DNA of 36,666 bases, taken from positions 1 through 36,666 of IMG/VR virus record IMGVR_UViG_3300005077_000057. One strand, written 5' to 3'. The notes beneath the pieces are model-generated. The model made no database searches, had not been told where the DNA came from, and saw only the letters and a list, made by a program, of their open reading frames with translations. The stretch's first letter is position 1. The number at the start of each line of letters is the position of its first letter. Below, piece by piece: positions 4,000-20,449 of this stretch. Source of the stretch: a virus. The position numbers and the translations under genes were made by a program.

Positions 4000-6741
4000 T
4001 TATTTTTTATTTGCTTTTTTCCAGATGTCAGTTAGTTGGGATTTGGTTTTAATATTTTTGGCATCAAATATATTAACTACCTCAAAATCTTTTATACCAA
4101 CAAAACCTTTCTCTTTTAATATCTCTACTGCCATCGCATATTTCTTTCCTACCATCGCACCTTGTTTTTTTGCCAATTCTAACGCTTTTTCAAAATCATT
4201 AACATTTGCTAATTTCCCAGGAGCATAAGCCTCAACTACATTGCCATAAGAACTCGCCATTTCTTTAGCATTTACACTTATTTTAGGTAATGGATTGTCG
4301 GAATAAAAATAGATTCCCTTACCATAAACACCCGTATTCTCGGCATCCCTAAACTCATTAAAATCTGCTTTTGTCCCGTGATACAAAGGTTCTCCCTGTC
4401 CTTTTACAAACTCCTCCGCACTCTTATACTTCTTGGCTTCCGAAAGGAGGTCATCTGTTTTATCAATGACAGTTCGTTTATATTTTTGCAAATCAACCCA
4501 TTTTCCGTTTATTTTAATTTCTAACATTTCCGGTGGAATATTTTGCCCGGTAACATAAGTCCCCTCTCCGCCAGCCAACAAATCCACATCTAAATCTTTG
4601 GGTTTATAGCTTGTTTTAGTTCTCAACATCACATCGTTGTTGCCACCATAATATTTTGCCCCCTCTTCATTAGCAGAAAAAGACAGCTTATTGTTAGACG
4701 AAACTCCTTCAAACCGAGCTTTTTTACCGGTGACCAATCCTTCTTTTGCTATGCTTTCTAAATTATCTACCGGCGTTGTATGGTATAGATTTCTTGATTT
4801 TTTAGTTACCAAGTCATTCCGCTCTAATTTAATTCTTCTATTTAATTCTTTATAATACGGGCTTTCTAATTTTTCCACCAGATTTTTATAAGAACCCTCT
4901 TGCCACATTTTTTTAAGCTCTTCATTGTTCATCTTGCTCAATTCACCTGATTTACCAGCAATAGTTTTCTTTGAAACTTTATCAATCTTTATACCAGTTT
5001 TTGCTAATTCATCGGGGTTCATTGTGGTAACATCTTTTATTGACAGGCCCGCCGGAATATTTTTTGCTTTGGTTTCAAGTTTTTGGGCCATTTCATCTAT
5101 GGCTTGATTCAGCACAGCTAATTCTGCTTTGGTAAGTTTAATACCACGCTTCATTTTACTAGTAAGATTATTCAAAAATGGCTGTAAAGCTCTTTTAAGA
5201 AGCCCGTATTGGCGCAGAATTGCGATAGCAAGCTGTGGAGATGTAAGCACTTGACCTATTAAAGCGCCGACTAAACCACCGGCGGCAAAACCACCGCCAA
5301 CACCGATTAGTGTTCTCCCATAAGAACCGACTTTTTGTCCTTGTGCGTAACCTATGTCTTCAATAGCTCGTAATATCCTTAAATCTTCTTCAATATCTGG
5401 GATTATTTTCTTTAAGCGTTCTAAAACCGGCTGTCTCCCTTCCTTTGTAAGATTAGCTATTTTTGATAATGCGTTGTCTTTTAACTCACCGGTCAAGGGG
5501 TTCAGATATTCTTTCTTTATTTGCTTCAACATTTTAACTTCGGGAGCGTATTTAGCATCTAATTCAGCCAACCCTTTAATTTTAGGGCGAAAAAATTTAT
5601 TAAACTCTTCCCGGATAGTTTCTCCGACCAACTGCGAAGCTGATGATTTTCCCGATGCAACTTCATATTTTGCCATTTGTGCCAACGCCTCTCTTGTATT
5701 CAAAAACTCATCTGCCGTATAAATACCGCCAGTTCCATATTCTCTCATAAACTTCTCAATGGCAGTGGCATCAGATGTTGTAATTGGTTTTGAAGCCTTT
5801 GAAGTTATCACTTTTCCAGTATCATCTAGAAAAATCTTAAATCTATTTTCCAATATGTCTTTGAAAAAATTATCCGGCACTTCAACTTTTTGTGCCGATG
5901 TTCTTAATGTGTTATACCCAGTCCCAATATCAGACAAATCATCCAGTCTTTTGACAATTCCTTGATAGACACGAGAACCGATGGCCTCACGACTAACCGC
6001 CTTCATTTCAGATTGGGTAAAGGCTTTGGGGTTCAAGATTACTTCTTTAATAGTTTTTGGACTTAATCCTGTCGCTTGTGCAACAGCGAACTCCGTTGTC
6101 TTGGCGACACCAGTCCCAAGTTTTTTAGCACCCTTTAACGCCAATTCGCCACCTTCTTTAAGAGCTGGCTGCACTATATCTTTGGCAACAGAACCAGCCA
6201 CTTTTGCGCCTCTACCTATTGGAATAACCGAAGCGATATTTCCAGCGGCACGAATATTTGCTTGCGTTCTTGGACTTAATCCACCGTAAACATCCATTCC
6301 AGATTCAATAGTCTTGCCTATTGTTTGGCCAACAGGAGTTTTTGCTATCTCGCCAATTCCATATTTTGCCACCTCACCGATACCTTTTTCAATAAAATCT
6401 GGCGTTACAGCTTTTGCGCCTTCAAACAAAATATCCCCAGCCAACCCAATAGTTTCGCCAACTGTTTGCCCAACAGATTCTCCGAGAGTTTGCTCACCAG
6501 CAGACTGACGGGCATAACCCTGCGACAGGCTTTCAGCGCGCTTTCCAAAAGACTCTTTGATATTTTGAAAAAATCCCTTTTTTTCTGTTTGTGTAGTTTC
6601 GGGTGTCTTAAAAGAACCATCAAGAACTCTTTGGTATTCCGGATATTTTTCCATTGTCATACGCCCCAAATCAGCATCATTGATGCTGTCATATTGAGGA
6701 TATTTTTTTTTAACTGCTCTACCAAACTCTTCTATTGTCAT
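4000..6741 (-). CDS. Large virion-associated (internal/ejection-type) multidomain protein with a C-terminal tandem ADP-ribosyltransferase-like region.
   Basis: 913 aa. Contains a glycine-zipper TM-like segment (IGVGGGFAAGGLVGALIGQVL). C-terminal motifs are NLYHTTPVDNLESIAKEGL...LSFS...EGTYV and PLYHGTKADFNEF...GVYGKGIYFYSD...VVEAY (H-Y-E pattern). Located in the tail/internal-protein block. Confidence 0.55.
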   Translation of the reverse strand: MTIEEFGRAVKKKYPQYDSINDADLGRMTMEKYPEYQRVLDGSFKTPETTQTEKKGFFQNIKESFGKRAESLSQGYARQSAGEQTLGESVGQTVGETIGLAGDILFEGAKAVTPDFIEKGIGEVAKYGIGEIAKTPVGQTIGKTIESGMDVYGGLSPRTQANIRAAGNIASVIPIGRGAKVAGSVAKDIVQPALKEGGELALKGAKKLGTGVAKTTEFAVAQATGLSPKTIKEVILNPKAFTQSEMKAVSREAIGSRVYQGIVKRLDDLSDIGTGYNTLRTSAQKVEVPDNFFKDILENRFKIFLDDTGKVITSKASKPITTSDATAIEKFMREYGTGGIYTADEFLNTREALAQMAKYEVASGKSSASQLVGETIREEFNKFFRPKIKGLAELDAKYAPEVKMLKQIKKEYLNPLTGELKDNALSKIANLTKEGRQPVLERLKKIIPDIEEDLRILRAIEDIGYAQGQKVGSYGRTLIGVGGGFAAGGLVGALIGQVLTSPQLAIAILRQYGLLKRALQPFLNNLTSKMKRGIKLTKAELAVLNQAIDEMAQKLETKAKNIPAGLSIKDVTTMNPDELAKTGIKIDKVSKKTIAGKSGELSKMNNEELKKMWQEGSYKNLVEKLESPYYKELNRRIKLERNDLVTKKSRNLYHTTPVDNLESIAKEGLVTGKKARFEGVSSNNKLSFSANEEGAKYYGGNNDVMLRTKTSYKPKDLDVDLLAGGEGTYVTGQNIPPEMLEIKINGKWVDLQKYKRTVIDKTDDLLSEAKKYKSAEEFVKGQGEPLYHGTKADFNEFRDAENTGVYGKGIYFYSDNPLPKISVNAKEMASSYGNVVEAYAPGKLANVNDFEKALELAKKQGAMVGKKYAMAVEILKEKGFVGIKDFEVVNIFDAKNIKTKSQLTDIWKKANKK

Positions 6742-6750
6742 ATTTTAATA

Positions 6751-8760
6751 TTAAACTCTGGCTAAACCAGTAATTTTTGATATCGGTATTGTTCTTGTTC
6801 TAATTTTCTCATCAAGCCCATAATTGCTATCTCGGACAACTACTGTTCCATCATTATTTACAGCCACGACAAACCCAGTATGCCCAGTGTCTTTATATGG
6901 AGTCACAAATACCATTCCGGGTTCTGGGTATTTAATAGTTTTATCCATTTTAGATATTTTGCTTTGGTAGCTATCACCAAGCGATAACTTATATCCTGTT
7001 AGCTTATTCACAAACTGACCACATTGGCCACCTTTTTCTCCATCCTTAAATGATAAAACTTTATTTAATGTAGCTGTAGGTGTTCCGCTACCACCTTGAT
7101 TAAAACCGAGATTTATCGGGTCCTGGTTAGATGGATTATATGCAGGACCAGCTTCGTTAATAAAGTTTCTCTTTACCAAATCTCTATTTGCTTTTTTTGT
7201 TTCCAAAACTTCCGCTGAATCACCGGGTTGTGAGAAATATTGCTGACGAGCATTAGCAAACTCTTCCGGACTAATCACCGCACCAGATTCACGCCTTAAT
7301 ACTGCATTGATAAAGTTTCGTTGAGCCTGTTCAAATCTTTGCCTGTCTGAACTTTTCATAATGTTTGGCAACTTTTCACCAATATAACTTGCCGCACCGA
7401 TAAACTGATTTTCCAACTCATCAATTATTTTAGTAGATTGGTCAAGACGAGAAGCATAATTCGCTACTGTATATTGAGCTTGCGTAAGGGGTTTCCCAGA
7501 GGAAGAACTAATCCAATCAGCGTAAGTTTTACCCGTTCCTTGTTCTCCGCCAGCAAGCGACCATTCTTGGAACGAAGATGGTGTATCAGACAAACCACCC
7601 ATTTCAGAAGATAAGTATGGAGTTGAATATTCAAGCGCCAGCTCCATATTTCCAGAAGCAACTATTTGTCTAACTAAATCAGATGGCGCACCGTTTTGTG
7701 CGGCCTGTGTAGCAAGGCTCATTATAGATGCTCTTTCGTCTTTTCTGGCATCTATTTCTCGTTGCCTTTCTTCCAGTTGTATGCTTATTTGGTCAGCCTT
7801 CAATTTATCTGCCCGACTTAAATTGTCGTATTCATATTTTATTAAAGAATCCAATTTCTTTAACTCTTGTTCTTGAGCATAAAACTCCAAGTTAATTGTT
7901 TGTTCAGCAGTTTGTTGAGCAAGAGCAATATTGCCTTGAAGTGCCTGTTGAACCGAAGTCAAAGCACCTATTTCAGCGGCCTTTTGCATTCTCATTTGTG
8001 CTTGCTGACCGGTGATAAACTGCATTGGAATTGGTTTGCCGGAAATATCAGTAATACCCTTATCGTAAGCACCTGAAAGTTGGGCGATTTGCAGATTTAA
8101 GTCTTGTAATTGTTTTTGTTGCTCTGGTATTCCGAGTCCTTGTTGAACCTCACTTAATCTTTGTCCGGCTGTTCCCATTTTATCAGAGGTCGCTGAATAC
8201 TGGTCTATCAAGGAGTTTAATTTACCGGTTGACGGGTCAACCGTTGTAGGTAATGCCGGAGTAGCATTACGCAATCCAGTAACAAACTCATCGGGATTTA
8301 CATTTGGATAAGATTCAATAGACTGTGGTGTTCTCGCCCCGTTGCCTAAACTATCAGCAGGGATTGAATCCGGAACATTAAATTGTGGCTGCGGTTGCGC
8401 AACATTAACAGATGATTTTTTCTCTAATAATCCAGTATTCGGGTTTAACACATACGAACCAGAGCCAACAACGGCTGGGGTTACAGCTTGGGTTGCTGTG
8501 GCATTTTGTGGTAAAGACAAAGCCGTCCCACTAACAACGGCCTGCGCCTTTTGTTGCGTAGAAGTTGGATTGGTAGTGAAAGCCGGAGGTGGTGCGGTGT
8601 TATAAGTTAATGGTGAAGCCTGTGATTTCGGCTGTTGACTACTCATAACAGAATTATAAGTATTCAAGGTATTTGAAACAGCCTGTGATTGTGGAAATAC
8701 AGCTTGAAATGCGGTTTTCGCAAAATTAAGTCCTTTGGACATCCAAGATGGGAGTGCCAT
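6751..8760 (-). CDS. Virion-associated peptidoglycan hydrolase with a C-terminal CHAP domain.
   Basis: 669 aa. P/Q/T-rich N-terminus, Q-rich coiled-coil middle, and a C-terminal GGQCGQFVNKL (Cys) ... DTGHTGFVVAV (His) ... DSNY signature typical of CHAP. Confidence 0.7.
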   Translation of the reverse strand: MALPSWMSKGLNFAKTAFQAVFPQSQAVSNTLNTYNSVMSSQQPKSQASPLTYNTAPPPAFTTNPTSTQQKAQAVVSGTALSLPQNATATQAVTPAVVGSGSYVLNPNTGLLEKKSSVNVAQPQPQFNVPDSIPADSLGNGARTPQSIESYPNVNPDEFVTGLRNATPALPTTVDPSTGKLNSLIDQYSATSDKMGTAGQRLSEVQQGLGIPEQQKQLQDLNLQIAQLSGAYDKGITDISGKPIPMQFITGQQAQMRMQKAAEIGALTSVQQALQGNIALAQQTAEQTINLEFYAQEQELKKLDSLIKYEYDNLSRADKLKADQISIQLEERQREIDARKDERASIMSLATQAAQNGAPSDLVRQIVASGNMELALEYSTPYLSSEMGGLSDTPSSFQEWSLAGGEQGTGKTYADWISSSSGKPLTQAQYTVANYASRLDQSTKIIDELENQFIGAASYIGEKLPNIMKSSDRQRFEQAQRNFINAVLRRESGAVISPEEFANARQQYFSQPGDSAEVLETKKANRDLVKRNFINEAGPAYNPSNQDPINLGFNQGGSGTPTATLNKVLSFKDGEKGGQCGQFVNKLTGYKLSLGDSYQSKISKMDKTIKYPEPGMVFVTPYKDTGHTGFVVAVNNDGTVVVRDSNYGLDEKIRTRTIPISKITGLARV

Positions 8761-8770
8761 AAAAAAGTTA

Positions 8771-8995
8771 TTAAGAGGCGATTGATGTTAATTCTGTTTC
8801 TCGCCATACTCCGTCTAAATAGACGGCTAAATAATAAGTGTTATCGTCTGGGTTTTTTCTAATCAGCATAGTTCCCTGTATGGCTTTGTGGTTTAAGCCA
8901 TCGGATTCAAAAACAGGAAAACCGAGCAAATCTTTCGGGTTTATTCTGGGAGCGTCTGTTCCCGTATGTCTATGATTTTCTACTTCAGTAAACAT
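8771..8995 (-). CDS. Hypothetical small structural protein.
   Basis: 74 aa ORF, co-oriented and overlapping the upstream tail gene by 11 nt. No recognisable motif beyond HRHTGTD. Confidence 0.5.
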   Translation of the reverse strand: MFTEVENHRHTGTDAPRINPKDLLGFPVFESDGLNHKAIQGTMLIRKNPDDNTYYLAVYLDGVWRETELTSIAS

Positions 8996-10787
8996 AAATT
9001 GCTTTTATCTCCGGCCCGACTGTGGCGGTAGCGCCGACAGTTACAGCGACTTTGAATTGTATCTGGTCGCCATTTACGGAGGAGTTTTCTATTATTTTTG
9101 TAGCTATCGCACCGTCAGAAGCATAACTCATTGTGCCGATAGTGGTGTATGTATCAGTCAAATTATTGCGGTAATAGAGCGTAATAACATCTCCGCTGGC
9201 CATTTCCTTGCCAAGATTTATCTCAAAGTAGCGGAATGTTTTAGGTTGATATTTGTCAGCTATTGTCCATAAACCTGTCTCAAAATATGAGGTCGTTACC
9301 AAGCGATAGCTGGCGTGGAAAGTTTGAATAGTGTAAAGGTCTGCCGTGTAGGTGCTTTCAAAACAACTGGCATAAAAAAGCTCGTCATCCGGTAAGAATG
9401 CTCCATAAGTCACTGTTTCCACCCCAGATACGCCCTCGTTAAGCGAAGCCAACCGATAAGGCACGGTAATTTTCCCTGTTGAGGGGTCAAACTCGTAAAT
9501 ACCAGCACCAAGCACCGTAGATGACGGGTTAGAGCAACCGATATAAAACTTATCTCGCCACTCCATAAACGAGTTCGGGCCAACCAAGAAAGATGTGGTG
9601 CTTCTCGCCTGTTGCGAGTTGTTTGTTGATTTAGGAAGTTGCCCAACCTTTTGAACAGCATAACCGTTGGTAGCGTAAATAGTCCCGTCAGTTTCACCAC
9701 TCGCAGAGTTTGAAGTTATAAAATACAAAGTCCCGTTATATGCTTTCATTATTTGAACCCAGCTTCCTTTAATTTCCAAGATACTATCAAATGATGGGCT
9801 TACTGTATCCCACAGGTAGATTTTGGCGTTATTCTCACCAGCAATACCAGTTCCTATCGCCAAACGCATATTATATTCCTCTAAAAATGTCGGATTTGAA
9901 CCGCCTTTTGGCAAAGTAAGTGCTTTTTGTGAATAGGTGAAAGTTGCGCCAGTTCCCGGAGCAAATGTTTCGCCTGTATTTTCTTCCAAAGAGTCAACAT
10001 ACCCTTGTCCGGTTGATGTCGCTTGCGAAGTCCCGATATACAATATGTTATTGCTCATCACTTTCATCGGGTTTGTGCCATAACTGGTGGATGTTTCAGC
10101 AAAGTTTTCTGTCCACGCCGCCGTTCCTAAATTAGCGATAGAACCAAAAGCCGACAATTTATTCGTGCCGACTTTTACTATCAAATAATTATTCCAAACT
10201 TCCATATCCACAGCGTCTTCTGAACGGCGAATACAAGTCCAAACATCTTTGTAAGATGATGATTTGAGCCAGACATTCATTCCGCCAGTTCCCTTGTCCA
10301 AAGCATAATAATTTCCACCATAATTAAAGAACTTTTTAACTACTTTTATTGATTTTGCGGTGATAGTGTGCGTGCCTGTGCCAGTATCGGTAATATCAAT
10401 CGGTGTATCCGCCGCCATATTAGCGAGAGATGAAGCCAATTTAAGCGTATTGCCCGAAAAGCTGATAACATAATAAATCGTATTGACCGCCAAAGGTGTG
10501 GGTAGCGTGTCGGTAGTGGTTAGCTCCACCGCCATACCCTCTTCCCAAATTGATGATGGCGTAGTCCCTATATCAAGCGTGTTATTCGCCGTTGAGACCG
10601 TGAAAGTCCTTGCCGTGTAAGCGGTTTCACCCCAGTATGGAAAATCAGCCGTTAATCTCGGCAATGGAAAAACAGCACCCACCGCACTGTCGGTATCAAG
10701 TCCAGTAATTCGGGTGAAGTTTCCAAGATAACTCGGAGACATCCCCTTTTCTATATTTTCCAATAGATTTATTTTTTTATCAGCCAT
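8985..10787 (-). CDS. Tail protein (nozzle / tail tubular B-like or receptor-binding), probably beta-rich.
   Basis: 600 aa, S/T/G/Y-rich with repeated strand-like segments, located between the fibre genes and the internal-protein genes. Assignment is by position and composition only. Confidence 0.4.
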   Translation of the reverse strand: MADKKINLLENIEKGMSPSYLGNFTRITGLDTDSAVGAVFPLPRLTADFPYWGETAYTARTFTVSTANNTLDIGTTPSSIWEEGMAVELTTTDTLPTPLAVNTIYYVISFSGNTLKLASSLANMAADTPIDITDTGTGTHTITAKSIKVVKKFFNYGGNYYALDKGTGGMNVWLKSSSYKDVWTCIRRSEDAVDMEVWNNYLIVKVGTNKLSAFGSIANLGTAAWTENFAETSTSYGTNPMKVMSNNILYIGTSQATSTGQGYVDSLEENTGETFAPGTGATFTYSQKALTLPKGGSNPTFLEEYNMRLAIGTGIAGENNAKIYLWDTVSPSFDSILEIKGSWVQIMKAYNGTLYFITSNSASGETDGTIYATNGYAVQKVGQLPKSTNNSQQARSTTSFLVGPNSFMEWRDKFYIGCSNPSSTVLGAGIYEFDPSTGKITVPYRLASLNEGVSGVETVTYGAFLPDDELFYASCFESTYTADLYTIQTFHASYRLVTTSYFETGLWTIADKYQPKTFRYFEINLGKEMASGDVITLYYRNNLTDTYTTIGTMSYASDGAIATKIIENSSVNGDQIQFKVAVTVGATATVGPEIKAIYVY

Positions 10788-10789
10788 AT

Positions 10790-11578
10790 TTAAGCAATTC
10801 CGTTAATTTTCTTAATATTTGCTATCGCTATCCCATTTACTTTTTTAAGATTAGCGTATGCTACACCATTGAACTTTTTAATGTGGGTAGTAGTGAAAGG
10901 GTATTGAAGTCCTGAACCGCTATTGTAGAGAGCAGAGATTTCATCAGTAGTAAGTTTTTTAGACCAAGCACCAAACTCATCTATAATAGCAGAAAGAAAA
11001 CTATCACTCGCTCCGCTTTGTCTGTCGGCAAAAAGCCCGAAACCACCAGCCGCAGAACTACTGGAATAGTTCATCGCTCTGGATTGCGATAATACCTCTG
11101 AATTGTTAGCGTAGCATCTCAAAGTAGAACCATCATAAGTTAAAACTATATGATACCAAGTTGCCGTGCTAAATGTATGAGATGTGGTATATGAACTGGC
11201 TGACCCATCATAAACAACAACTTTCAGTGTTCCATTATCGTTCATTAAACCACAATTTCTACGCCTATTTGCTCCACTTTGGACTTGCCAAAGACATATC
11301 CATTTACTTGCTGCGTTTGTGTTTATATTTACCCAACCAGACCAACTCCATCCAGTAGCAAACTGGTCATAAGTTAGTCCAAGCGGAGAATTGCTATCTT
11401 GATAAAGCGTTTTATTTGTATTGCTTGAACCAGTATCAGCCGCATAACCAATTTTTCCACTTGCGTTTTCTCCGACAGAATTGGCGTTTGTCAAAGTTTG
11501 CCCATTGCCAGTAGCATCGGTAGTCAAAGCTCCGCTATCAAACTTATAATACGCTAAAATTGAGTCAGTCAAAGCCAT
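10790..11578 (-). CDS. LamG / concanavalin-A-like lectin-domain tail fibre protein.
   Basis: LAYYKFDSGALTTDATGNGQTLTN ... WYHIVLTYDGSTLRCYANN ... IDEFGAWSKKLTTDEISALYN fits the Laminin_G_3 pattern. The C-terminus has three 10-aa repeats (KKxNGxAxAN). Confidence 0.75.
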   Translation of the reverse strand: MALTDSILAYYKFDSGALTTDATGNGQTLTNANSVGENASGKIGYAADTGSSNTNKTLYQDSNSPLGLTYDQFATGWSWSGWVNINTNAASKWICLWQVQSGANRRRNCGLMNDNGTLKVVVYDGSASSYTTSHTFSTATWYHIVLTYDGSTLRCYANNSEVLSQSRAMNYSSSSAAGGFGLFADRQSGASDSFLSAIIDEFGAWSKKLTTDEISALYNSGSGLQYPFTTTHIKKFNGVAYANLKKVNGIAIANIKKINGIA

Positions 11579-11581
11579 AAC

Positions 11582-11779
11582 TTATTTTATTTTAGCCATT
11601 TCCGTAGCCACTTCTGCTTTATCCTCTACTGTATAATCGCCTTCATCAATGGTTTTTTTCAAATCATTTAAGCGATTAACCAAACTTGTTTTTGTAGTTT
11701 CAAGGTTCTCTAATTGTTTGAGAACGCTTAAAATCTCTTGTGCGATTTCGTTTTTTGCTACATCAGTTAAAATTGCCAT
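11582..11779 (-). CDS. Small coiled-coil protein (possible fibre assembly factor).
   Basis: 65 aa with a heptad-like acidic helix. Sits between the collagen-like and LamG fibre genes. Confidence 0.45.
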   Translation of the reverse strand: MAILTDVAKNEIAQEILSVLKQLENLETTKTSLVNRLNDLKKTIDEGDYTVEDKAEVATEMAKIK

Positions 11780-11798
11780 ATAATATTAAATTAAATTA

Positions 11799-12917
11799 TT
11801 AAGCTTTATATTCTACTCTTGCGTTGTCGGGACAAAAATACATTCTGTCTGCGTGTGTAGCCACTCCCGCAATAGCCACTACATCATCTTCGCCACTTGG
11901 AGCTGTTTGAGTTAAAGCTCCACCTGTTGTTGAGGCGTATATTCTGCCACCAACAGTCCACGCCCAATCATCATCACGAACAAATCCCCTTAAAAGAACC
12001 TTTGTCGCTTCATCTGCCACCTTGCTTTCCAAAGCCAAGCCGAGAAGCAAACACGAAGCAATAGCGTCAGCGTCTGACTTCCACCATTTCCCGTCTGATT
12101 TCAAATAAACCAAGTTAGGAAAGGCAAGTGTTTCGCCAGCCACTATATCATCCACAATATCCCCATTACCGGTATTATCGCTTGAAGGAATAGCGTCATA
12201 AATCAAATTATATTCCGCTAAATCAATATCACCCGTTAAAGAGCCAGATAATACGCCCGTGGGACCTGTCGGACCTTGCGCGCCTGTCGGACCAGTAGCG
12301 CCTTGCGCTCCCGTAGGCCCTGTCGCACCAGTTGGACCCGGCACGGTTGAAGCCGCACCAGTCGGACCTGTGTGTCCGGTAGGCCCAGTTGCTCCTTGCG
12401 GACCAGTGGGACCAGTATGTCCTGTTGCGCCGGTTGTCCCAGCACCTGTTGGACCAGTAGGTCCAGTTGGCCCTATTGAGCCAGTAGGCCCAGTATGCCC
12501 TGTCGTTCCTGCTCCTGTTGGACCGGTTGGACCCGTATGGCCCGTCGGTCCTGTTGGACCGGTTGGCCCTGTTGTGCCAGCTCCGGTAGGGCCTGTATGC
12601 CCAGTCGGGCCTGTTGGTCCTTGCGCTCCGGTTGGGCCGGTAGTTCCAGCACCCGTAGGTCCGGTGTGTCCCGTTGGGCCGGTAGCACCTTGCGCACCGG
12701 TAGCACCAGCCGAGCCAGTCGGACCAGCAGAACCGGTCGGGCCAGTCGGACCGGTAGCTCCGGCACTTCCAGCGCTTCCGGTAGGTCCAGTAGCGCCAGT
12801 AGCTCCTTTGAAGTTGGCTTTTGTAGCTTTATAGGTTGTTCCGCCACTTACAACAGCAACATAATCGTCATCCGCCACAGGGGATAGTGTTGTAAGTTCA
12901 CTAATTTTTGCATCCAT
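11799..12917 (-). CDS. Collagen-like triple-helix repeat fibre protein (G-x-T repeats).
   Basis: About 190 aa of uninterrupted GxY triplets dominated by GPT/GAT/GHT, followed by a globular C-terminal domain. Antisense and shifted frames are open only because of the repeat. Confidence 0.85.
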
Positions 12918-12920
12918 ATT

Positions 12921-13784
12921 TTATCTTATAAATAATACATCTTGATTTTTTGCTAAATTGACAAATTGTTGCCATTTTTTGCTATTTTTAGGTCCTGTTA
13001 ATTTAACCATCATCTCCAACGCTTCCTTGAAGTCAGCGTTTATCAGTATTGCTCTTAAACAATATGCTTTCGCCATATCGTATTTTTTCAGATTACAACA
13101 GCATTTCGCTATTTGTAGGTTGGCTTCAGACATTTCAGGTGGCCACCACGCCTTTTTCAAGTAATCTTCATACCAGAACATTGCCGTCTCCCAGTCCTTT
13201 CTATACCAATACTCGCGTGCCAGATAAAACTTTTCTCTTATACAATTCGGGTCTTTAATCACTTCCTTGCCCAGTATTCTTAACGCTCTATCAGGGTCTT
13301 TTTTGTGAGCATCGCTATATCCGTATTTGATAACTATTTCACTTGTTGTTTTGGCGACCATTGTCAGATAATTGTGTATTGCTCCTTTCCAGTAAATCTT
13401 TGGTGTCCGCCTAAATACTCTGGGAAATAAAAAGTGTTCTTTCGCTCCGTTTTTTGGTTTTAATATACAATGTAATAATTGCTCGTCAGAATACTTTGCT
13501 ATTTCGGCTTTCAGCACATCCACGCTCTCCAAAACTTCGTCAGCATCTATTGATAATATCCAATCGCCAGTAGCTTTGCTCAAAGCGTGATTACGAGCTT
13601 CGCACATACTGTCGTTCCACTTGTAGTCGGTATAAATCTTGTCGGTATAGCGTTTTGCTATTTCAATCGTATTGTCTTCGCTTCCTGTATCACAAATAAT
13701 AATCTCATCAAGTCCTTTAATGCTTTCCAAACATTCTTCAAGACAACTCTCTTCATTTTTTACGATTAAAACCGCACTTATCAT
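12921..13784 (-). CDS. Family-2 glycosyltransferase fused to a TPR-like C-terminal domain.
   Basis: ISAVLIVKNEESCLEECLESI ... ICDTGSEDNT ... SIDADEVL (DxD). The C-terminus has repeated helical W/Y-rich TPR-like units. Confidence 0.8.
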   Translation of the reverse strand: MISAVLIVKNEESCLEECLESIKGLDEIIICDTGSEDNTIEIAKRYTDKIYTDYKWNDSMCEARNHALSKATGDWILSIDADEVLESVDVLKAEIAKYSDEQLLHCILKPKNGAKEHFLFPRVFRRTPKIYWKGAIHNYLTMVAKTTSEIVIKYGYSDAHKKDPDRALRILGKEVIKDPNCIREKFYLAREYWYRKDWETAMFWYEDYLKKAWWPPEMSEANLQIAKCCCNLKKYDMAKAYCLRAILINADFKEALEMMVKLTGPKNSKKWQQFVNLAKNQDVLFIR

Positions 13785-13786
13785 AA

Positions 13787-13960
13787 TTACGATGGTTTAG
13801 TTGCGTTAGACCAAGTTGATGTTGGTTTAGTTGCGTTAGACCAGTCAGAAGCCCGTGATAAAACTATCTTGTCGCCGTTCTCCAATAACAGATAGTAGGC
13901 ATCTTCCTTTAACAGAAAGGAATTGGTCAATGATGGTTTTGTCTCGTTTGTCCAACTCAT
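13787..13960 (-). CDS. Small repeat protein (57 aa) with W-x-N-x-TKP-S/T repeats.
   Basis: Hand-translated MSWTNETKPSLTNSFLLKEDAYYLLLENGDKIVLSRASDWSNATKPTSTWSNATKPS. ATGA-coupled to the upstream gene. A 20-bp exact DNA repeat (ggtttagttgcgttagacca) lies at a 30-bp period. Confidence 0.45.
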   Translation of the reverse strand: MSWTNETKPSLTNSFLLKEDAYYLLLENGDKIVLSRASDWSNATKPTSTWSNATKPS

Positions 13961-14685
13961 ATGTTTTCTTTTAGATAATCTTTAACCGTCATTCTTGGCG
14001 GGAACATCTCTTGAAACTTCTTGGCGTAATATGTTTTGATGTTCTGTTTCATTTTTTCATACTCTTTTTCCAGTTTGGCGTAAGCGTCATTGCCTTGCGG
14101 TTTAGAAAACCAATAACGGATAGACGCTCCAACTGGGATAACTCCGTGAAACTCGGCGATAAATCCGGGTGTAGCGGTGGTATCGGTTGAAACAAAGTCG
14201 TGAGAACCCCTATCAAAATACACTCGTAAAGATGAGGCCTGTGTGTAATCGGATGCCGGATAAATCGTCATAGTGTCGCCAATAAGCGTGTAATATCTCG
14301 GTTGTCCGTCAGTAGTGTAGAACTCGCTAATCGCTCCGGGTATTTTCTCGGTCGGTAGTGGCTCTAACTTATGCCAAATGCTGTCCTCGTTCATAACCTC
14401 TACTCGCCTGACCGTGTATGTTCCTGTTGGCAGAGCATAGGTGCTTTGTGCCGAAGTTATAGTCGCTGTGGCGATAGGCAAATCTGTTTGGTTGCTGTCT
14501 TCATACTGCCAACCACCATAAGCGTCAAAAATCACGCTCCAAATCTCTCTGTTCACATCATTGGCATAAGCGGTGAACTTTTTAAGCAATGTTGAGTTGC
14601 CACTAATTCCCGTATTGCCTAAATTACAGTAATCTTCGCAGAGCTGTATAATTCCATTTAATCCTGAAGTGTCTGAAAAAACCAT
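13957..14685 (-). CDS. Structural protein, possible head-tail adaptor / tail tubular A-like.
   Basis: ATG at 14685 lies 4 nt after the HNH stop. The alternative ATG at 14739 would overlap the HNH gene by 50 nt. Assignment by position between the head and tail blocks only. Confidence 0.4.
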   Translation of the reverse strand: MVFSDTSGLNGIIQLCEDYCNLGNTGISGNSTLLKKFTAYANDVNREIWSVIFDAYGGWQYEDSNQTDLPIATATITSAQSTYALPTGTYTVRRVEVMNEDSIWHKLEPLPTEKIPGAISEFYTTDGQPRYYTLIGDTMTIYPASDYTQASSLRVYFDRGSHDFVSTDTTATPGFIAEFHGVIPVGASIRYWFSKPQGNDAYAKLEKEYEKMKQNIKTYYAKKFQEMFPPRMTVKDYLKENI

Positions 14686-14689
14686 ATAG

Positions 14690-15256
14690 TTATTTTTTAT
14701 GTATTTTAATATGGCAGTTCTTGCACAAAGTAATGCCATTATTTATATCAAATCTTAATTCTTTATATTTAGCCCAGTGTTTTATGTGATGAGCGTTTAA
14801 ATTGTGTCCTTTATTATCTCCGCATAACTGACAAGCATAGTCATCTCTTTCAAAAACTGATTTTCTCCACTCAATCGCTTCTTTTCTGTTTCTCTCAAGT
14901 AAATTTATTTCTGTTAATCCACCCTTCCATTTATAAGCATTTTCTTGACGATAGTGTTTTGGCCAACAATTTTTACAATAAGTAATTTCTTTTCTAAAAT
15001 TATACCTATACTTTAATTGTTTTCCACAATCAGCACATACGCTTTTTCCTCCTCTATAATTTGGGTTTTCTTTTCCTGAAATAGCAGAAGATTGAAAAAT
15101 TCCTCTACATTTTCTAGAACAAAACTTACTCTTCTTATACTGTTCTGGACTAATCCTTTTACTATTAGCAACAGTATTTCTAATAATTTCATTACCACAA
15201 ATTATACAAAATCTTCTTTCCAATTCTATTTTTCTTTTACTTCTACCGTCCCGCAT
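14690..15256 (-). CDS. Free-standing HNH homing endonuclease.
   Basis: C-terminal CQLCG...NLNAHHIKHW...NNGITLCKNCHIKIH (HNH with a zinc-binding CxxC pair). N-terminal CxxC-rich region. Markedly AT-rich relative to its flanks. Confidence 0.85.
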   Translation of the reverse strand: MRDGRSKRKIELERRFCIICGNEIIRNTVANSKRISPEQYKKSKFCSRKCRGIFQSSAISGKENPNYRGGKSVCADCGKQLKYRYNFRKEITYCKNCWPKHYRQENAYKWKGGLTEINLLERNRKEAIEWRKSVFERDDYACQLCGDNKGHNLNAHHIKHWAKYKELRFDINNGITLCKNCHIKIHKK

Positions 15257-15266
15257 AAAGTCATAT

Positions 15267-15947
15267 TTAGTGTTTAGCTTGATATTTATTTATATCCTTT
15301 GTTGTTTTGCTGTTGAATAGTTTAGTGTTGTTCGCTACGCAATGACCGCCTATCTTGCCTTCCGTATATTTCAATACTGGTCTTACTACTTCGGGTCGGC
15401 CAAGTTTTATGTATCCCTCGTTATAGGTTTGGTTGGCATCTGTATAAACCAAGTCAAAATCTACTTTGTGTTTCTTACACCAATTAAATATCTCCTTGTT
15501 GAGCAGTATCATTGCGCCGTATTGCGTGGTGGACCATAGTTTAAGTGCTTCCGTATCGTTAGAGCTTTTGGTTGTTTTGGTTTTAATTCCAAATGTCTCA
15601 AAGTATTTCGCCGCTTCCCTTGCCTGTTCGCCACCAAAGTATTTTACAAATGTTCTTATCCCTTCTTCCAAGTGAGGGTGAACGCCCCTAACTGGGGAGT
15701 GAACCACGCCAAGTTTCTTACAAGTCCCAACTGGAACTGTGGAATGGACTATCGTAATTTTTGGCGTAAATCTTTTAATGTATCCCTTTACCGTGCTATT
15801 AAAATAATTTGAATACGGAATGCAGATATGAATAATATCGTAATGTTTTTCTTCATATTTGCCTTCCAAGCGGTCAATGTAATCACCGCCAACTACATTA
15901 TGAATGCCCTTACCAATTTCACCGTAGCCAATAATTAAATTAGTCAT
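15267..15947 (-). CDS. NAD(P)-binding nucleotide-sugar dehydrogenase-like protein (short form).
   Basis: N-terminal Rossmann motif LIIGYGEIGKG. TEALKLWSTTQYGAMILLNKEIFNWCKKHKVD and GKIGGHCVANNTK resemble the central and catalytic-Cys segments of UDP-glucose/GDP-mannose dehydrogenases. Confidence 0.5.
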   Translation of the reverse strand: MTNLIIGYGEIGKGIHNVVGGDYIDRLEGKYEEKHYDIIHICIPYSNYFNSTVKGYIKRFTPKITIVHSTVPVGTCKKLGVVHSPVRGVHPHLEEGIRTFVKYFGGEQAREAAKYFETFGIKTKTTKSSNDTEALKLWSTTQYGAMILLNKEIFNWCKKHKVDFDLVYTDANQTYNEGYIKLGRPEVVRPVLKYTEGKIGGHCVANNTKLFNSKTTKDINKYQAKH

Positions 15948-16974
15948 AGAACGCTTTTATTTTAGTAATAATAAAATCTTGTTCTTCTTCGGTTAATTTA
16001 ATTCCGCAAGGCAAGCATACTGTCGTTTTATAAATCGCATCACTACTCCAAGTTCCATATTGCTTATACATTTTTTGCGTATGAATTGGCACAAAGCCCG
16101 GTCTTGTCTCTATATCAAATCTCGCTAAATAATCCATCAAAGTTTTGGCGTTAGGCGTGTTATACGGATACATCCAAAACGAACCTGCTCGCTTGATATA
16201 AGATGAATTGCCATAATTTGATAATTCTTTCGTATATTTATCCGCTATTCTCTTTTTAATAAGGTTATGCTCATCAAGTTTTTTAAGTTGTGAAGCTCCA
16301 AGTGCGCACTGCATAGCCCCCATACTCATACCGTAGCCGACTTTATTGTGCATATACTGCCCAGTTCGGTATTGGTCTTTTAATAATTTAATCTCTTTGG
16401 CAATGTCTTCATAATTCGTCACCACCATACCGCCCTCGCCTGTGGTTATAACCTTGTTGGCAAAGAACGAGAAACAACCAATATCGCCCTGTGAGCCAGC
16501 CATAAACCCTTCAACTTCTGCTCCAATAGCTTCCGCCGCATCTTCTATCACCGGAACACCATAGGATTTCAGTGTCGCCATATCGCAAGGTATCCCGTAT
16601 GTATGAACCGCTATAATTGCCTTTGTTTTTGGCGTTATTTTAATCTTATCGGCCATTATATTCAGCGTGTATGGTTCACTATCAACCAGAATTGGCGTTG
16701 CGCCTGTGTGCGATACCGCATTAGCTACCGCAATAAATGAAAAATCTGGCACTATAACCTCGTCTCCCGGCCCTATTCCTAACGCTTTTAGTGCGATAAA
16801 CAGCGCAGAAGTGCCTGAATTGACCGCTATGGCGAACTTCACGCCCATTTTCTCGGCAAATGCTCTCTCAAAATCATCACAAACGGCTGTTCTGCCCGAT
16901 AATTCGTTATTTTCAAGGCATTTAACCACCGCTTCAATGTCTTCTTTGTCTATATTTGGCTCGCAAATGTTCAT
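15940..16974 (-). CDS. DegT/DnrJ/EryC1/StrS-family PLP-dependent sugar aminotransferase.
   Basis: AVNSGTSALFIALKALGIGPGDEVIVP ... DAAEAIGA ... FSFFANKVITTGEGGMVVT (Schiff-base Lys). Length 344 aa. Confidence 0.9.
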   Translation of the reverse strand: MNICEPNIDKEDIEAVVKCLENNELSGRTAVCDDFERAFAEKMGVKFAIAVNSGTSALFIALKALGIGPGDEVIVPDFSFIAVANAVSHTGATPILVDSEPYTLNIMADKIKITPKTKAIIAVHTYGIPCDMATLKSYGVPVIEDAAEAIGAEVEGFMAGSQGDIGCFSFFANKVITTGEGGMVVTNYEDIAKEIKLLKDQYRTGQYMHNKVGYGMSMGAMQCALGASQLKKLDEHNLIKKRIADKYTKELSNYGNSSYIKRAGSFWMYPYNTPNAKTLMDYLARFDIETRPGFVPIHTQKMYKQYGTWSSDAIYKTTVCLPCGIKLTEEEQDFIITKIKAFYD

Positions 16975-17495
16975 AAATCGTAGTGTGCTATTAAATAACT
17001 TCTTCCTATAAATCGTTTAGAATGTATTGTCTTGACCGTGCCGTTAGGCAGTAAATCAAGCAAATCCTGCTCGCTAAACTCCCATAAATGCTCCGGGTCA
17101 TCAAACTCCAAGTGCGGTGTAGATAATATAATTCGCTTCCTTGCCAGTCGCACCATCTCTTTTATTAAAAGTTCGGGTTTTTCTAAATGCTCAATCACTT
17201 CCCCAGCCACCACCGTATCAAATGATTTATCTTTGAAAGGTGTCCGTAGAATATCAGCGCAAACAAACTTCGTTTCAGGATATAGTTGTTCGCATTTTGA
17301 TATTGTGCGTGGTGAATAATCCACTCCGACACCGCCTATCACATCAGCAAATGGCGATAAACCACATCCCAAGTCAAGCACCGTGCCGATTACTCTTTTA
17401 GCGTATTCTCTCTGCCGTAGTCCGAAGTCCATAGCGGTCTGGTGTTCATCCCAGTAATTCGGCGTGTTTATATTGGCAGTAGTTAATCGCTTCAT
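16971..17495 (-). CDS. Class I SAM-dependent methyltransferase.
   Basis: Motif I VLDLGCGLSPF, then FDTVVAGEVIEHLEKP. ATGA overlaps on both sides. Confidence 0.8.
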   Translation of the reverse strand: MKRLTTANINTPNYWDEHQTAMDFGLRQREYAKRVIGTVLDLGCGLSPFADVIGGVGVDYSPRTISKCEQLYPETKFVCADILRTPFKDKSFDTVVAGEVIEHLEKPELLIKEMVRLARKRIILSTPHLEFDDPEHLWEFSEQDLLDLLPNGTVKTIHSKRFIGRSYLIAHYDL

Positions 17496-18577
17496 ATACC
17501 CACAACTATTGGTTTATCTCGCCAATTTATTACCTTTGTTTCATAACCGACCTCTTCAAGCATCTGTTTCATATCCTCTACCGCAATGCCGTAAAATCTA
17601 TCGTGATAAGCCATTTTGCGTAAATTGCCCTGCATCACTACCGACTTACAACTCTTTCTTATTTGTCTCAAAATCTCTTTTTTGTTTTTTAGGTGATAGA
17701 TAACATTTAGCAATAAACAGGTATCGTATTTGTCAATTATTTTATAAGTATTCAAGTCAGCCACTTCAAATGTTATCGGTAAATCTCTTTTGTTTAGTTT
17801 TTCAAATATCAGTTTGTTAGTCCAAGCTCCCTCTACGAACTTGTAATCTACGCCGTGAGCGATACTGCCCTGTAATGCCGACTTAATTGACATCAGCCCT
17901 TCATTACATCCCAAGTCCAACACTTTTTTACCGATTAAATCTTTTATCACCGGCCACCTATCGTCAGCGTTTTCTCTATAAATAAAAGGCACATTTTGCT
18001 CCAAGTTTTTGAACTCGCCGTAATCTATCAAGTAGTAGTTCGGGCCAAGTCCTATCTCACGGGCTTTTGTTTTTCTTTTCAGCCACTCCCAAGATACTCC
18101 CTCCCAATGAAACGCAAACTCTTTAACTTCAATTTCAGGTATCTGTAAGTAGTGAGCAACTAAGCTCCTGTGTGAGCCATCAAACTTCTCGCCTGTCCGC
18201 TCTACACATACTCCGCCATAGTGTCCCAAGTTCTTGTTAAATCCTGTTCGCATTGAGGTCAGTATCTCTTTTAATGAACGGATTTTAACATCAACATAAT
18301 TATCACCTTTTATTTTCCCCCAAAAGCTGTAATATCTCGTATCTTGGAACTTTATATCGGGGTTTTTGTCTATCTGCTCTATTGTTTCTAAAACTGGGTG
18401 ATAATCTATCTCATAAAACTTTTCTGTGTTTTCTTCCCACACTATCGGCTTACTGCGGTCTTCCTCTGGCTCTAACTGGACAAAATCTGTCGGTTTAATT
18501 GACTTCCAAACGAACTTATCAGCACTCATTAAGTCGTGCCTTTGTTGCCAAGTTGTCGTGTGAAAATCAAATGTCAT
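17492..18577 (-). CDS. Two-domain protein: ParB/Srx-like N-domain plus a class I SAM methyltransferase.
   Basis: N-half has VCVERTGEKFDGSHRSLVAHYLQIPEIEV (DGxHR-type motif). C-half has KVLDLGCNEGLMS ... YDTCLLLNVIYHLKN. Confidence 0.6.
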   Translation of the reverse strand: MTFDFHTTTWQQRHDLMSADKFVWKSIKPTDFVQLEPEEDRSKPIVWEENTEKFYEIDYHPVLETIEQIDKNPDIKFQDTRYYSFWGKIKGDNYVDVKIRSLKEILTSMRTGFNKNLGHYGGVCVERTGEKFDGSHRSLVAHYLQIPEIEVKEFAFHWEGVSWEWLKRKTKAREIGLGPNYYLIDYGEFKNLEQNVPFIYRENADDRWPVIKDLIGKKVLDLGCNEGLMSIKSALQGSIAHGVDYKFVEGAWTNKLIFEKLNKRDLPITFEVADLNTYKIIDKYDTCLLLNVIYHLKNKKEILRQIRKSCKSVVMQGNLRKMAYHDRFYGIAVEDMKQMLEEVGYETKVINWRDKPIVVGI

Positions 18578-19509
18578 AATGATAGATATTTTGGTTTTAA
18601 TGTTTTCCAGCTATTTTGTTTAGCCCACTCTTTGCCCATTAAAGAGTATTTTGATATGTCTTTGCCATACCACTCGTCTATTTTCTGGGCTATTTTTTTA
18701 GGGTTAATTATGGCGCAATCAAACTCTGCTCCAATACGCTTTTTTACATATCCATCGTGGTCTATCAATAATTCTTTTGGCAACCAAGTATTTGTCGGAA
18801 ATCTGTCGCTGGCCATTACCGGAATACCACTCGCATACGCTTCTTGCATCGGCAAAAATGAACCACCAAACTTTTCAGGAAATATCAGTATGTCGCCGTC
18901 TTTCCATAAATCCTCATAGGGCATATCACCTCTAAATATCTCTACTCTTGTGTCATCGCTTTTCAAATCAAGGTTTTGGGAACGCACTTTTAATTTAATC
19001 GGGCTTTTAACATACTTCATCGCTTCCAATAGTTCCTTTGTGCCGTTTCTACCGCCCAGTCCGCCGTGTCCGGCATTGTGTATAAACACTTCGGCTCGCT
19101 TTCTTAACTTCCATTTCATATCCACCGGAACATTTATGTATTGGCAAGGTATCTGGCATCCTAATCTTTTGTAATGCTCAACCTCAATTTCGCTTCCACC
19201 CACCAATACATCGGGATAATAAGGAAAAGGATACTGCGTGCATTCATACATCGCTAATAATATTGTTTTAATCCCCTTTAATTTTGCTTCTGGTATTACC
19301 TTCCAATTAAAAGGAGTTTCAAAGAACATTAACTTGTCGCATTCGTATAAATCCTCTATCCGATTAACCCTCTCCTTGCCATACCAATTCTCTGTCTTAT
19401 AAGAGGAGTGCGGATATACGAATATTTTGTCTATTATGCCGTGGTCAATAAAGGATTTTGCTTGTATCCCCAGTCCGCTTTGTGTGGCATAGCAAATCGT
19501 GCCTATCAT
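18574..19509 (-). CDS. GT-B fold glycosyltransferase (GT1/GT4-like).
   Basis: DILIFPEKFGGSFLPMQEAYASGIPVMASD matches the E-x7-E / GT4 C-terminal donor-binding signature. Confidence 0.7.
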   Translation of the reverse strand: MIGTICYATQSGLGIQAKSFIDHGIIDKIFVYPHSSYKTENWYGKERVNRIEDLYECDKLMFFETPFNWKVIPEAKLKGIKTILLAMYECTQYPFPYYPDVLVGGSEIEVEHYKRLGCQIPCQYINVPVDMKWKLRKRAEVFIHNAGHGGLGGRNGTKELLEAMKYVKSPIKLKVRSQNLDLKSDDTRVEIFRGDMPYEDLWKDGDILIFPEKFGGSFLPMQEAYASGIPVMASDRFPTNTWLPKELLIDHDGYVKKRIGAEFDCAIINPKKIAQKIDEWYGKDISKYSLMGKEWAKQNSWKTLKPKYLSL

Positions 19510-20447: not shown

Positions 20448-20449
20448 AG

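Follow-up and report, generated by a model that had tools for sequence, protein, structure and literature searches.

The collagen-like fibre gene and the glycosyltransferase gene upstream of it

We have analysed a stretch of viral DNA of 36,666 nucleotides, positions 1-36,666 of the IMG/VR virus record IMGVR_UViG_3300005077_000057 (hereafter the window; all positions refer to this whole stretch), and in particular two adjoining genes on its minus strand. The first gene in transcription (12921-13784) encodes a protein of 287 amino acids (aa), in which a glycosyltransferase family 2 (GT2) domain is joined to tetratricopeptide repeat (TPR)-like helices and which we predict to be a protein O-glycosyltransferase of the fibre encoded next to it. 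The second gene (11799-12917, stop codon included) encodes this fibre, a collagen-like virion protein of 372 aa. Both open reading frames (ORFs) lie where an earlier reading of the same DNA, the original prediction, had placed them, with the GT2-TPR gene directly upstream of the fibre gene in transcription, and 3 nt separate the TAA stop codon of the former from the ATG of the latter. Directly upstream of the pair lies the gene of an adaptor (head-to-tail) protein (13957-14739, minus strand; Pfam SU10_adaptor, E 1.6e-7), which provides the structural context.

The fibre protein matched Pfam Collagen with an E-value of 2.9e-21, which rules out a collagen assignment by chance. Its stalk, the predicted target of O-glycosylation, covers aa 38-223 (186 aa; 12249-12806, minus strand) and holds 58 G-x-y triplets in six segments, whose five interruptions are four 'GAG-TT' register shifts and one 'GAASTVP' insert. 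G-x-T triplets make up 42 of the 58 (72%), in the form of GPT (27), GAT (9), and GHT (6), and Thr accounts for 51 of the 186 stalk residues. The original prediction had described an uninterrupted G-x-T tract of about 190 aa; its length was close, but the tract is broken five times and is not purely G-x-T. Likewise, a threonine at every third residue overstates what is nevertheless a very high Thr frequency. The stalk DNA repeats with periods of 9, 18, 27, and 69 bp. The four identical 'GAG-TT' breaks recur with a 23-residue period (the 69-bp DNA repeat, 12558-12701) as regular kinks or hinges, and the histidines at the X position of the six GHT triplets form a His ladder. A plus-strand ORF with GPV repeats (12259-12834) and other overlapping ORFs were rejected as reading-frame artefacts of the repetitive collagen codons.

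The N-terminal 37 aa of the fibre (12807-12917, minus strand) carry a motif that also opens the fibres encoded after the adaptor in five related loci (L301, L302, L312, L322, and L355), whose stalks and C-termini differ. Considering that a motif recurring across fibres with different stalks and C-termini is the usual signature of an attachment end, these residues are probably the module by which the fibre is attached to the virion. At the other end, aa 224-372 (149 residues; 11802-12248, minus strand) make up a C-terminal beta domain, a knob or 'bead'. Its AlphaFold2 monomer model, which was built with database homologues, is all-beta with a predicted local distance difference test (pLDDT) score of 88.5. 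The sole solved sequence relative is the C-domain of the neck fibre gp82 of phage A-1(L) (E 2e-7, and 1e-8 with a profile). Phage_cement_2 (PF09956) matched weakly, at 20.7 bits against a cut-off of 24 bits (E 5.6e-4), and 12 of 31 C-domain homologues also matched this family, with a best E-value of 9e-10. In a Foldseek search of the PDB, the top fold matches of the C-domain were capsid decoration proteins (E 9e-4 and weaker). The predicted fold resembles trimeric decoration or cement proteins and the trimeric gp82 C-domain bead, the model itself being a monomer, and the knob probably nucleates trimer formation. A Foldseek search of BFVD placed the C-domain fold at the C-termini of many long phage fibre proteins, and a 'tail fiber protein' of a cultured Flavobacterium phage has the same C-terminus as the window fibre. 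Pfam found no BclA_C (C1q/TNF-like) domain in the fibre, where Collagen was the sole match, and the same tool detected BclA_C in two bacterial loci (L241 and L295). Therefore, the fibre is not a member of the BclA family.

Downstream of the fibre gene lie an ORF of 65 aa (11582-11779, minus strand), which has weak PHROG matches only, and a gene for a LamG/concanavalin-like protein of 262 aa (10790-11578, minus strand; Pfam Laminin_G_3, E 4.4e-15). A LamG homologue likewise comes after genes with the fibre C-domain in L203 (274-1035), L049, L312 (14917-15699), and L355 (8702-9892). The analogy with the gp82C-gp81-gp80 assembly of A-1(L) suggests that the LamG protein is the probable distal partner of the fibre knob and forms a lectin-like tip on it. 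The LamG-like protein ends in short repeats, KK[FVI]NG[VI]A.AN[LI], and a small ORF in L312 occupies the same position as the 65-aa ORF of the window.

Taken together, we infer that the protein is a neck or tail fibre with an N-terminal anchor, a glycosylated collagen stalk, a trimeric knob, and a LamG lectin-like tip. We rank a head fibre with the C-domain as its capsid anchor below this arrangement. The decoration-protein fold of the C-domain would suit a head fibre, but it is the N-terminal motif that is the conserved end across fibres, the fibre gene comes after the adaptor gene, and the C-domain fold lies at the C-termini of long fibre proteins in BFVD.

The enzyme matched Pfam Glycos_transf_2 (PF00535) above the cut-off (E 1.4e-19). 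From the AlphaFold2 secondary structure and the alignments with GmaR and SunS, we assigned aa 1-155 (13320-13784, minus strand) to a GT-A catalytic domain, followed at aa 159-277 (12954-13310, minus strand) by a C-terminal TPR-like helical repeat domain of seven helices that is predicted to bind the acceptor. The DxD motif D80-A-D82 (13539-13547, minus strand), which is predicted to bind the metal and the nucleotide sugar, aligns with 'DADE' of GmaR and 'DADN' of SunS. Both aspartates are invariant in an alignment of 24 sequences (50-70% identity), as are many other GT-A residues. Pfam matches to the TPR families TPR_14, TPR_2, and TPR_1 (aa 185-251) were weak, with TPR_14 just over its cut-off at 24.5 bits and the others below theirs.

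In a sequence search of the PDB, the enzyme matched the glycosyltransferase domain of GmaR (E 2e-27), SunS (3e-12), and ThuS (9e-12), and ordinary polysaccharide GT2 enzymes appeared at 1e-5 and weaker only. The top NCBIfam match was the SunS peptide S-glycosyltransferase family at 58.6 bits, far under the equivalog cut-off of 350 bits, so the enzyme is a relative and not an orthologue of SunS. The AlphaFold2 model, made with 24 homologues, has a pLDDT of 95.3, and the GT-A domain is modelled above 90. When this model was compared with the PDB by Foldseek, SunS and ThuS came first (E 4e-18 to 5e-17; TM 0.65-0.70 over about 300 columns), with a match that spans both the GT-A and the helical repeat domain; the next matches (2e-9; TM at most 0.48) were polysaccharide or teichoic-acid GT2 enzymes. 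Accordingly, since the best matches are GmaR, SunS, and ThuS, the nearest characterised relatives all modify proteins or peptides. The family is large, with 2094 homologues at E-values of 1e-10 or below and more than 510 confirmed places in IMG/VR.

About half of the closest GT2-TPR homologues (P0003, P0007, P0015, and others) are 460-490 aa long and carry an S-adenosylmethionine (SAM) methyltransferase fused C-terminally. A 972-aa protein in L355 (3311-6226) has an N-terminal methyltransferase, a GT2 domain split by a second methyltransferase, and a TPR domain. These fusions suggest frequent methylation of the sugar that is transferred.

TPR modules serve as scaffolds for protein binding, and dedicated chaperones are often encoded beside fibre genes. 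Considering that the enzyme gene lies immediately upstream of the fibre gene, the GT2-TPR protein could act mainly as a non-catalytic chaperone, whose TPR domain binds unfolded collagen chains and whose transferase activity is lost or irrelevant. We regard this as very improbable, because D80, D82, and many other GT-A residues are kept without exception over 24 homologues, because the GT-A domain is modelled with such high scores, and because the homologous SgtA of Clostridioides difficile is catalytically active on collagen peptides (PMC7157674).

Linkage of the enzyme to threonine-rich collagen across genomes

We examined the co-occurrence of enzyme and collagen in both directions. In the forward test, the best 80 IMG/VR loci were chosen by the enzyme alone (43-56% identity), and they fall into 45 clusters at 80% identity. 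The window capsid protein had no match in any of these 80 loci, and their contigs vary in length between about 4 kb and 527 kb, which indicates that they come from unrelated phages. Among the non-redundant loci flanked by at least 4 kb on both sides, 21 of 29 have a Thr-rich collagen gene on the same strand within 4 kb of the enzyme gene, and with at least 7 kb of flank a Thr-rich collagen gene is present in 16 of 20. In 13 loci, 9-14 nt lie between the end of the collagen gene and the start of the enzyme gene, and in others the collagen gene lies just downstream of the enzyme gene.

In the reverse test, 120 IMG/VR loci were chosen by the GPTGPTGPT DNA pattern alone, with flanks of about 7 kb in total (median). 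An enzyme homologue, matching from aa 2 to about 200-280, was present in 16 of the 120, always on the collagen strand, and in none of 94 collagen-free loci (Fisher p 8e-5). Collagens beside the enzyme have a G-x-T fraction of 0.71 compared with 0.62 in the other GPT collagens, a modest difference (p 0.005), and collagen length did not differ between the two groups (p 0.31).

We also profiled the lineage of the window itself, using 80 loci around homologues of its adaptor. A collagen fibre is present in four of them (L302, L312, L322, and L355), and the GT2-TPR enzyme is present in all four, compared with none of the other 76 (p 6e-7). Three of these loci have the enzyme gene upstream of the fibre gene, immediately so in L302 and L312. 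L302, whose capsid protein is 85% identical to that of the window, repeats the order of adaptor, GT2-TPR, and fibre genes. The more distant L312, with a capsid of 31% and an enzyme of 28% identity, has an adaptor, the GT2-TPR enzyme, a collagen fibre with the same C-domain, the small ORF, and a LamG gene. In L322, a collagen fibre of 1055 aa is followed, after about 4 kb, by the GT2 and TPR parts in two overlapping ORFs (17592-18203 and 18182-19444), a split that could be a frameshift, an assembly error, or genuine. Three further loci (L311, L326, and L353) were rejected as exceptions to the lineage profile, as their tblastn matches extend from aa 2 to about 100 only and belong to TPR-less GT2 genes of the type found in the sugar island described below.

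The fibre C-domain gives a complementary profile. Among 19 loci with its closest relatives, obtained by a single-sequence search, 18 are without collagen and none has the enzyme. One of the closely related phages (L201) has, after its adaptor, a collagen-free homologue of 233 aa whose C-domain is 64% identical to that of the window fibre, and no enzyme; the tail fibre of the cultured Flavobacterium phage fits the same pattern. On the other hand, where C-domain homologues stand beside the enzyme, in seven loci, six have them fused to Thr-rich collagen (L060, L049, L038, L056, L009, and L006); in the seventh (L001), the collagen ORF forms a gene of its own, upstream of the enzyme gene and unfused to the C-domain homologue. 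From the lineage and domain profiles, the enzyme tracks the collagen stalk rather than the locus, the knob, or the lineage. A phylogenetic profile of GT2-TPR enzymes against G-x-T fibres, which the original prediction had put forward as a check, is strongly positive.

The pairing extends to bacteria. We searched one genome per species with the window enzyme and examined 80 loci. The homologues, at 30-39% identity, come mostly from spore-forming Bacillota, and 31 of the 80 loci have a Thr-rich collagen ORF, which in 22 lies within 600 bp, usually just downstream on the same strand. BclA_C was above threshold in two of seven scanned collagen neighbours, the two loci named above. A Peptostreptococcaceae homologue of 354 aa is 35% identical over aa 2-228, that is, into the first helices of the C-terminal helical domain. 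In C. difficile, SgtA consists of a GT-A domain (aa 3-225) and four TPR repeats (aa 262-358) and is encoded immediately upstream of bclA3; in vitro, it transfers beta-O-GlcNAc from UDP-N-acetylglucosamine (UDP-GlcNAc) onto Thr of BclA3 collagen-repeat peptides (PMC7157674). The kinship with GmaR, SunS, and ThuS, the SgtA precedent, and the positive profile together support the original proposal of a protein-directed glycosyltransferase tied to the G-x-T fibre.

These data also bear on whether the enzyme acts on something other than its neighbour. It could modify another virion protein, the flagellin, pilin, or S-layer of the host, or an envelope glycan for superinfection exclusion, with its place beside the fibre gene reflecting a hot spot for accessory genes. 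Characterised relatives vary in their acceptors, from flagellin (GmaR) to bacteriocin peptides (SunS), some homologue loci have no collagen gene nearby, and the PHROG label of the family is 'moron/AMG, beta-1,4-glycosyltransferase'. In addition, phage glycosyltransferases near fibre genes are usually read as modifiers of lipopolysaccharide or DNA (PMC7029224, PMC10202952). However, the enzyme follows the collagen stalk, and fibre genes without long collagen at the same position (L201 and L301) lack it. The pairing also stands beside BclA-type genes in bacteria, where there is no phage fibre hot spot, and adjacency on the same strand with gaps of 3-14 nt recurs. Accordingly, we consider a different acceptor improbable.

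Several points weigh against O-glycosylation of the fibre by the enzyme. The individual TPR matches in Pfam are weak, and the likeness to SgtA is one of published architecture and gene order. In the forward test, several loci with long flanks (L007, L023, L065, L064, L012, L073, and L057) have no collagen within 6-10 kb, indicating that the enzyme family has other acceptors or that the acceptor genes are distant. In the reverse test, 104 of the 120 GPT-rich collagen loci lack the enzyme in the limited flanks available, so phage collagens do not in general require glycosylation by this enzyme family. Because the loci are not independent in evolution, the p-values given above overstate the evidence, and the lists of the top 80 are not random samples.

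The sugar island and the neighbouring genes

The minus strand of the window carries every ORF of at least 100 aa with detectable homologues, and this set makes up the structural module of a tailed phage. In the order of transcription, it begins with the large terminase (25941-27227, minus strand), a portal-like protein of 594 aa, and the major capsid protein (22395-23324, minus strand), followed by a sugar-biosynthesis and glycosyltransferase island (15267-21414, minus strand) and an HNH endonuclease. It continues with the SU10-type adaptor, the GT2-TPR enzyme, the collagen-like fibre, the 65-aa ORF, the LamG-like protein, and proteins of 600, 669, and 913 aa, the second of which has a CHAP domain. 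Scans of the window for promoters and terminators gave no signal beyond the shuffled expectation, and no tRNA was found in it. A DNA and protein search of 50,697 phage records returned no close cultured relative of the pair or of the capsid protein; the matches were compositional collagen, distant GT2 enzymes, the capsid of phage A-4L (24% identity), and the C-domain of the Flavobacterium phage fibre.

The original prediction had placed a sugar island with DegT- and CgeB-like genes a few genes upstream of the pair, and such an island is indeed there. It encodes a GT2-like protein, a CgeB-like Glyco_trans_1_2 protein, a weak GT1-like match, two SAM methyltransferases, a DegT aminotransferase, and a 226-aa ORF. 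The aminotransferase is closest to GDP-perosamine synthase (PDB 3bn1, E 6e-72); for the 226-aa and CgeB-like proteins, a sequence search of the PDB gave nothing informative. Between the island and the GT2-TPR gene lie the adaptor gene and the HNH endonuclease gene (14690-15256, minus strand), the latter sharing 50 nt with the adaptor ORF.

The original prediction had also taken the island as part of the fibre system, in which case its methylated amino-deoxy sugar, its additional transferases, and the GT2-TPR enzyme would together build a fibre glycan resembling that of BclA with anthrose, in one large pathway. We consider this unlikely, though less so than a different acceptor. All of these genes share a strand within the structural module, where the terminator scan gave nothing above chance, and the island contributes a perosamine-synthase-like aminotransferase, two methyltransferases, and three more glycosyltransferase-like proteins. 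The methyltransferases fused to many GT2-TPR homologues elsewhere would also suit a single pathway, as would the closest relative, L302, which has island, enzyme, and fibre together. However, about 17 of the 80 related loci have the island, and L302 is the sole one among these with the fibre and the GT2-TPR enzyme; the island occurs without either in L300, L303, L310, L313, L323, L330, L331, L335, and others, at the same position between capsid and adaptor genes. Conversely, L312, L322, and L355 have the fibre and the enzyme without the island. DegT or CgeB-like homologues of the window genes were found in none of the 80 enzyme-selected loci, where methyltransferase homologues alone recur, often fused to the enzyme. 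Because the island is inherited separately from the fibre and the GT2-TPR gene, it must be a separate module that needs an acceptor of its own, which, given its position, is possibly a head or capsid protein.

Two relatives illustrate this independence. L300 and L301, whose capsid proteins are 48-51% identical to that of the window, have homologous islands between capsid and adaptor genes (4789-12992 and 8992-15900, respectively) and no GT2-TPR gene. In L300, the next tail gene comes directly after the adaptor gene. The adaptor gene of L301 precedes a fibre gene whose product has the same N-terminal motif and three short collagen snippets only.

Some details of the island differ between relatives. 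In L301, the island also encodes a Gmd-like 4,6-dehydratase and a GNAT acetyltransferase, and these additions point to a sugar of the N-acyl-perosamine type. The TPR-less GT2 ORF of the window island has 238 aa (20698-21414), and the relatives' versions are extended or followed by a short C2H2-zinc-finger-like tail (C..C...H...H), as in L301 (8992-10008) and L302 (3859-4856).

The remaining genes offer a few further observations. About 150 bp of the HNH gene resemble the DNA of HNH genes from Staphylococcus and Bacillus phages (69-72% identity), and outside collagen this stretch is the sole nucleotide-level similarity to cultured phages that was found. The 669-aa protein (6751-8760, minus strand) is encoded inside the tail module. 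It has a C-terminal CHAP domain of the peptidoglycan-hydrolase type (aa 574-646), and its probable role is that of a lysin or an ejection protein associated with the virion. The 913-aa protein (4000-6741, minus strand) had no match in Pfam or PHROG. Its C-terminal third contains two similar segments, 'LYHTTPVDNLESIAKEGL...' and 'LYHGTKADFNEF...GIYFYSD', which are reminiscent of ADP-ribosyltransferase-like toxin domains.

Proposed mechanism and comparison with known systems

We consider it likely that the GT2-TPR protein is a soluble phage-encoded protein O-glycosyltransferase of the SgtA, GmaR, and SunS kind, and that it acts on Thr residues of the fibre. What the data show are the gene pair and its tight spacing, the family and predicted fold of the enzyme, its conserved DxD motif, and the linkage with Thr-rich collagen in many genomes; the transfer reaction, its sugar and sites, and the function of the glycan are predicted. 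The enzyme would be made alongside the structural proteins and translated immediately ahead of the fibre. Its GT-A domain, with the DxD motif, would take a nucleotide sugar from the host pool. The characterised relatives use UDP-GlcNAc or UDP-glucose, and the first sugar may be a hexose or an N-acetylhexosamine from a host UDP-sugar. While the TPR-like domain holds the repetitive G-x-T chain, sugars would be placed on the Thr hydroxyls of stalk residues 38-223, at up to about 42-51 sites per chain and about three times as many per trimer. This O-glycosylation would take place in the cytoplasm, before or during trimerisation, and the glycosylated chains would then trimerise from the C-terminal beta knob. 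In the assembled particle, the N-terminal 37 aa would anchor the fibre close to the adaptor or neck, and the LamG lectin-like protein would probably sit on the knob. The sugar coat may stabilise a G-P-T triple helix that has no hydroxyproline, and it may also shield the fibre or keep it hydrated.

In a wider and more tentative form, which we think doubtful as a whole, GT2-TPR enzymes would be obligate partners of Thr-rich collagen fibres in hundreds of unrelated phages, with O-glycosylated Thr replacing hydroxyproline, so that G-P-T triple helices could fold and persist extracellularly. 'Glyco-collagen' fibres would then be a common but overlooked kind of virion appendage, and many glycosyltransferases encoded beside fibre genes, at present annotated as modifiers of lipopolysaccharide or DNA, would be enzymes of virion glycosylation. 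The island of the window phage, inherited on its own, would add a perosamine-type sugar to a second virion component, and the particle would be doubly glycosylated.

The enzyme-substrate logic is already known from spores, in SgtA and BclA3, and phage virions apparently represent a wide reuse of it. An incomplete literature search found no work linking phage collagen-like fibres with GT2-TPR enzymes. The virion proteins known to date to be glycosylated by phage enzymes are the capsid and tail-tube proteins of mycobacteriophages. If our reading of the pair is correct, it would add a broader and mechanistically different case, in which a spore-type pair serves fibres encoded on more than 500 viral contigs, with genomes from podophage size up to jumbo size. 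The annotation of glycosyltransferase genes beside fibre genes would change, and a G-x-T collagen gene adjoining a GT2-TPR gene would become a rule for finding glycosylated virion proteins. It would also matter for the stability of fibres, for host recognition, and for how the immune system recognises therapeutic phages, and would offer compact enzyme-substrate pairs for glycosylated, hydroxyproline-free designer collagens.

BclA of Bacillus anthracis, with its anthrose/rhamnose glycan, has a G-x-T filament whose Thr residues are O-glycosylated, with methylated amino-deoxy sugars made with a DegT-type aminotransferase. The window fibre shares with it a G-x-T-rich collagen-like region. The island, however, is perosamine-like rather than anthrose-like and is inherited apart from the fibre. 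Accordingly, the parallel with BclA drawn in the original prediction stands as a functional analogy but not as family membership, since a knob of the phage fibre or decoration type takes the place of BclA_C.

Other comparisons concern the fibre and its sugars. Mycobacteriophage glycosyltransferases modify virion structural proteins, at the C-termini of capsid and tail-tube proteins (Freeman et al. 2023, as summarised in PMC12619734); these are likewise phage-encoded enzymes acting on virion proteins, as we predict for the window, but their reported acceptors are not collagen repeats. In the Anabaena myophage A-1(L), the gp82 bead is homologous to the C-domain of the window fibre and binds further beads and a distal carbohydrate-binding module, which parallels the knob and LamG gene pair of the window. 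Unlike the window fibre, gp82 has no collagen stalk or associated glycosyltransferase, and it is attached to a pentadecameric neck protein by an N-domain of 125 aa. The cuticle collagen of Riftia pachyptila also has Gly-X-Thr triplets, and its triple helix owes its stability to glycosylated Thr instead of hydroxyproline (Mann et al. 1996, cited in PMC6953826). The parallel is physical-chemical only, as this is an animal extracellular collagen that receives galactose in the secretory pathway, and there is no homology of enzymes.

Among the enzymes, GmaR of Listeria monocytogenes is the best solved relative of the catalytic domain, with about 50% identity over the first 90 residues. GmaR O-GlcNAcylates flagellin with a layout of glycosyltransferase and TPR domains, the latter being proposed to recognise the substrate (PMC9638930). 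It thus shares with the window enzyme the order of GT2 and TPR, and its reaction is the Ser/Thr O-glycosylation of a filament protein. It differs in its acceptor and in its length of 637 aa, which includes an extra linker and MogR anti-repressor domains; the window enzyme is without the anti-repressor part. SunS and ThuS are the best structural matches over the whole protein, the gene of their substrate peptide is adjacent to their own, and SunS is encoded by the SP-beta prophage. Unlike the enzyme we propose, they form an S-linkage with Cys on a small bacteriocin precursor, and they are about 420 aa long with 17-19% identity to the window enzyme.

The nearest system is that of SgtA and BclA3. 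On the one hand, in BclA3 the modified protein belongs to the spore surface and not, as predicted here, to a phage virion, and it has BclA_C where the window fibre has a phage knob and no exosporium-targeting N-terminus; SgtA has 358 aa compared with the 287 aa and about 3.5 helical repeats of the window enzyme. On the other hand, in both systems a GT-A/GT2 domain is followed by TPR repeats, and the gene lies directly upstream of that of a G-x-T-rich collagen-like protein. Moreover, homologues of the window enzyme (33% identity, E about 1e-28 to 2e-31) are found upstream of BclA_C-containing genes in Clostridia.

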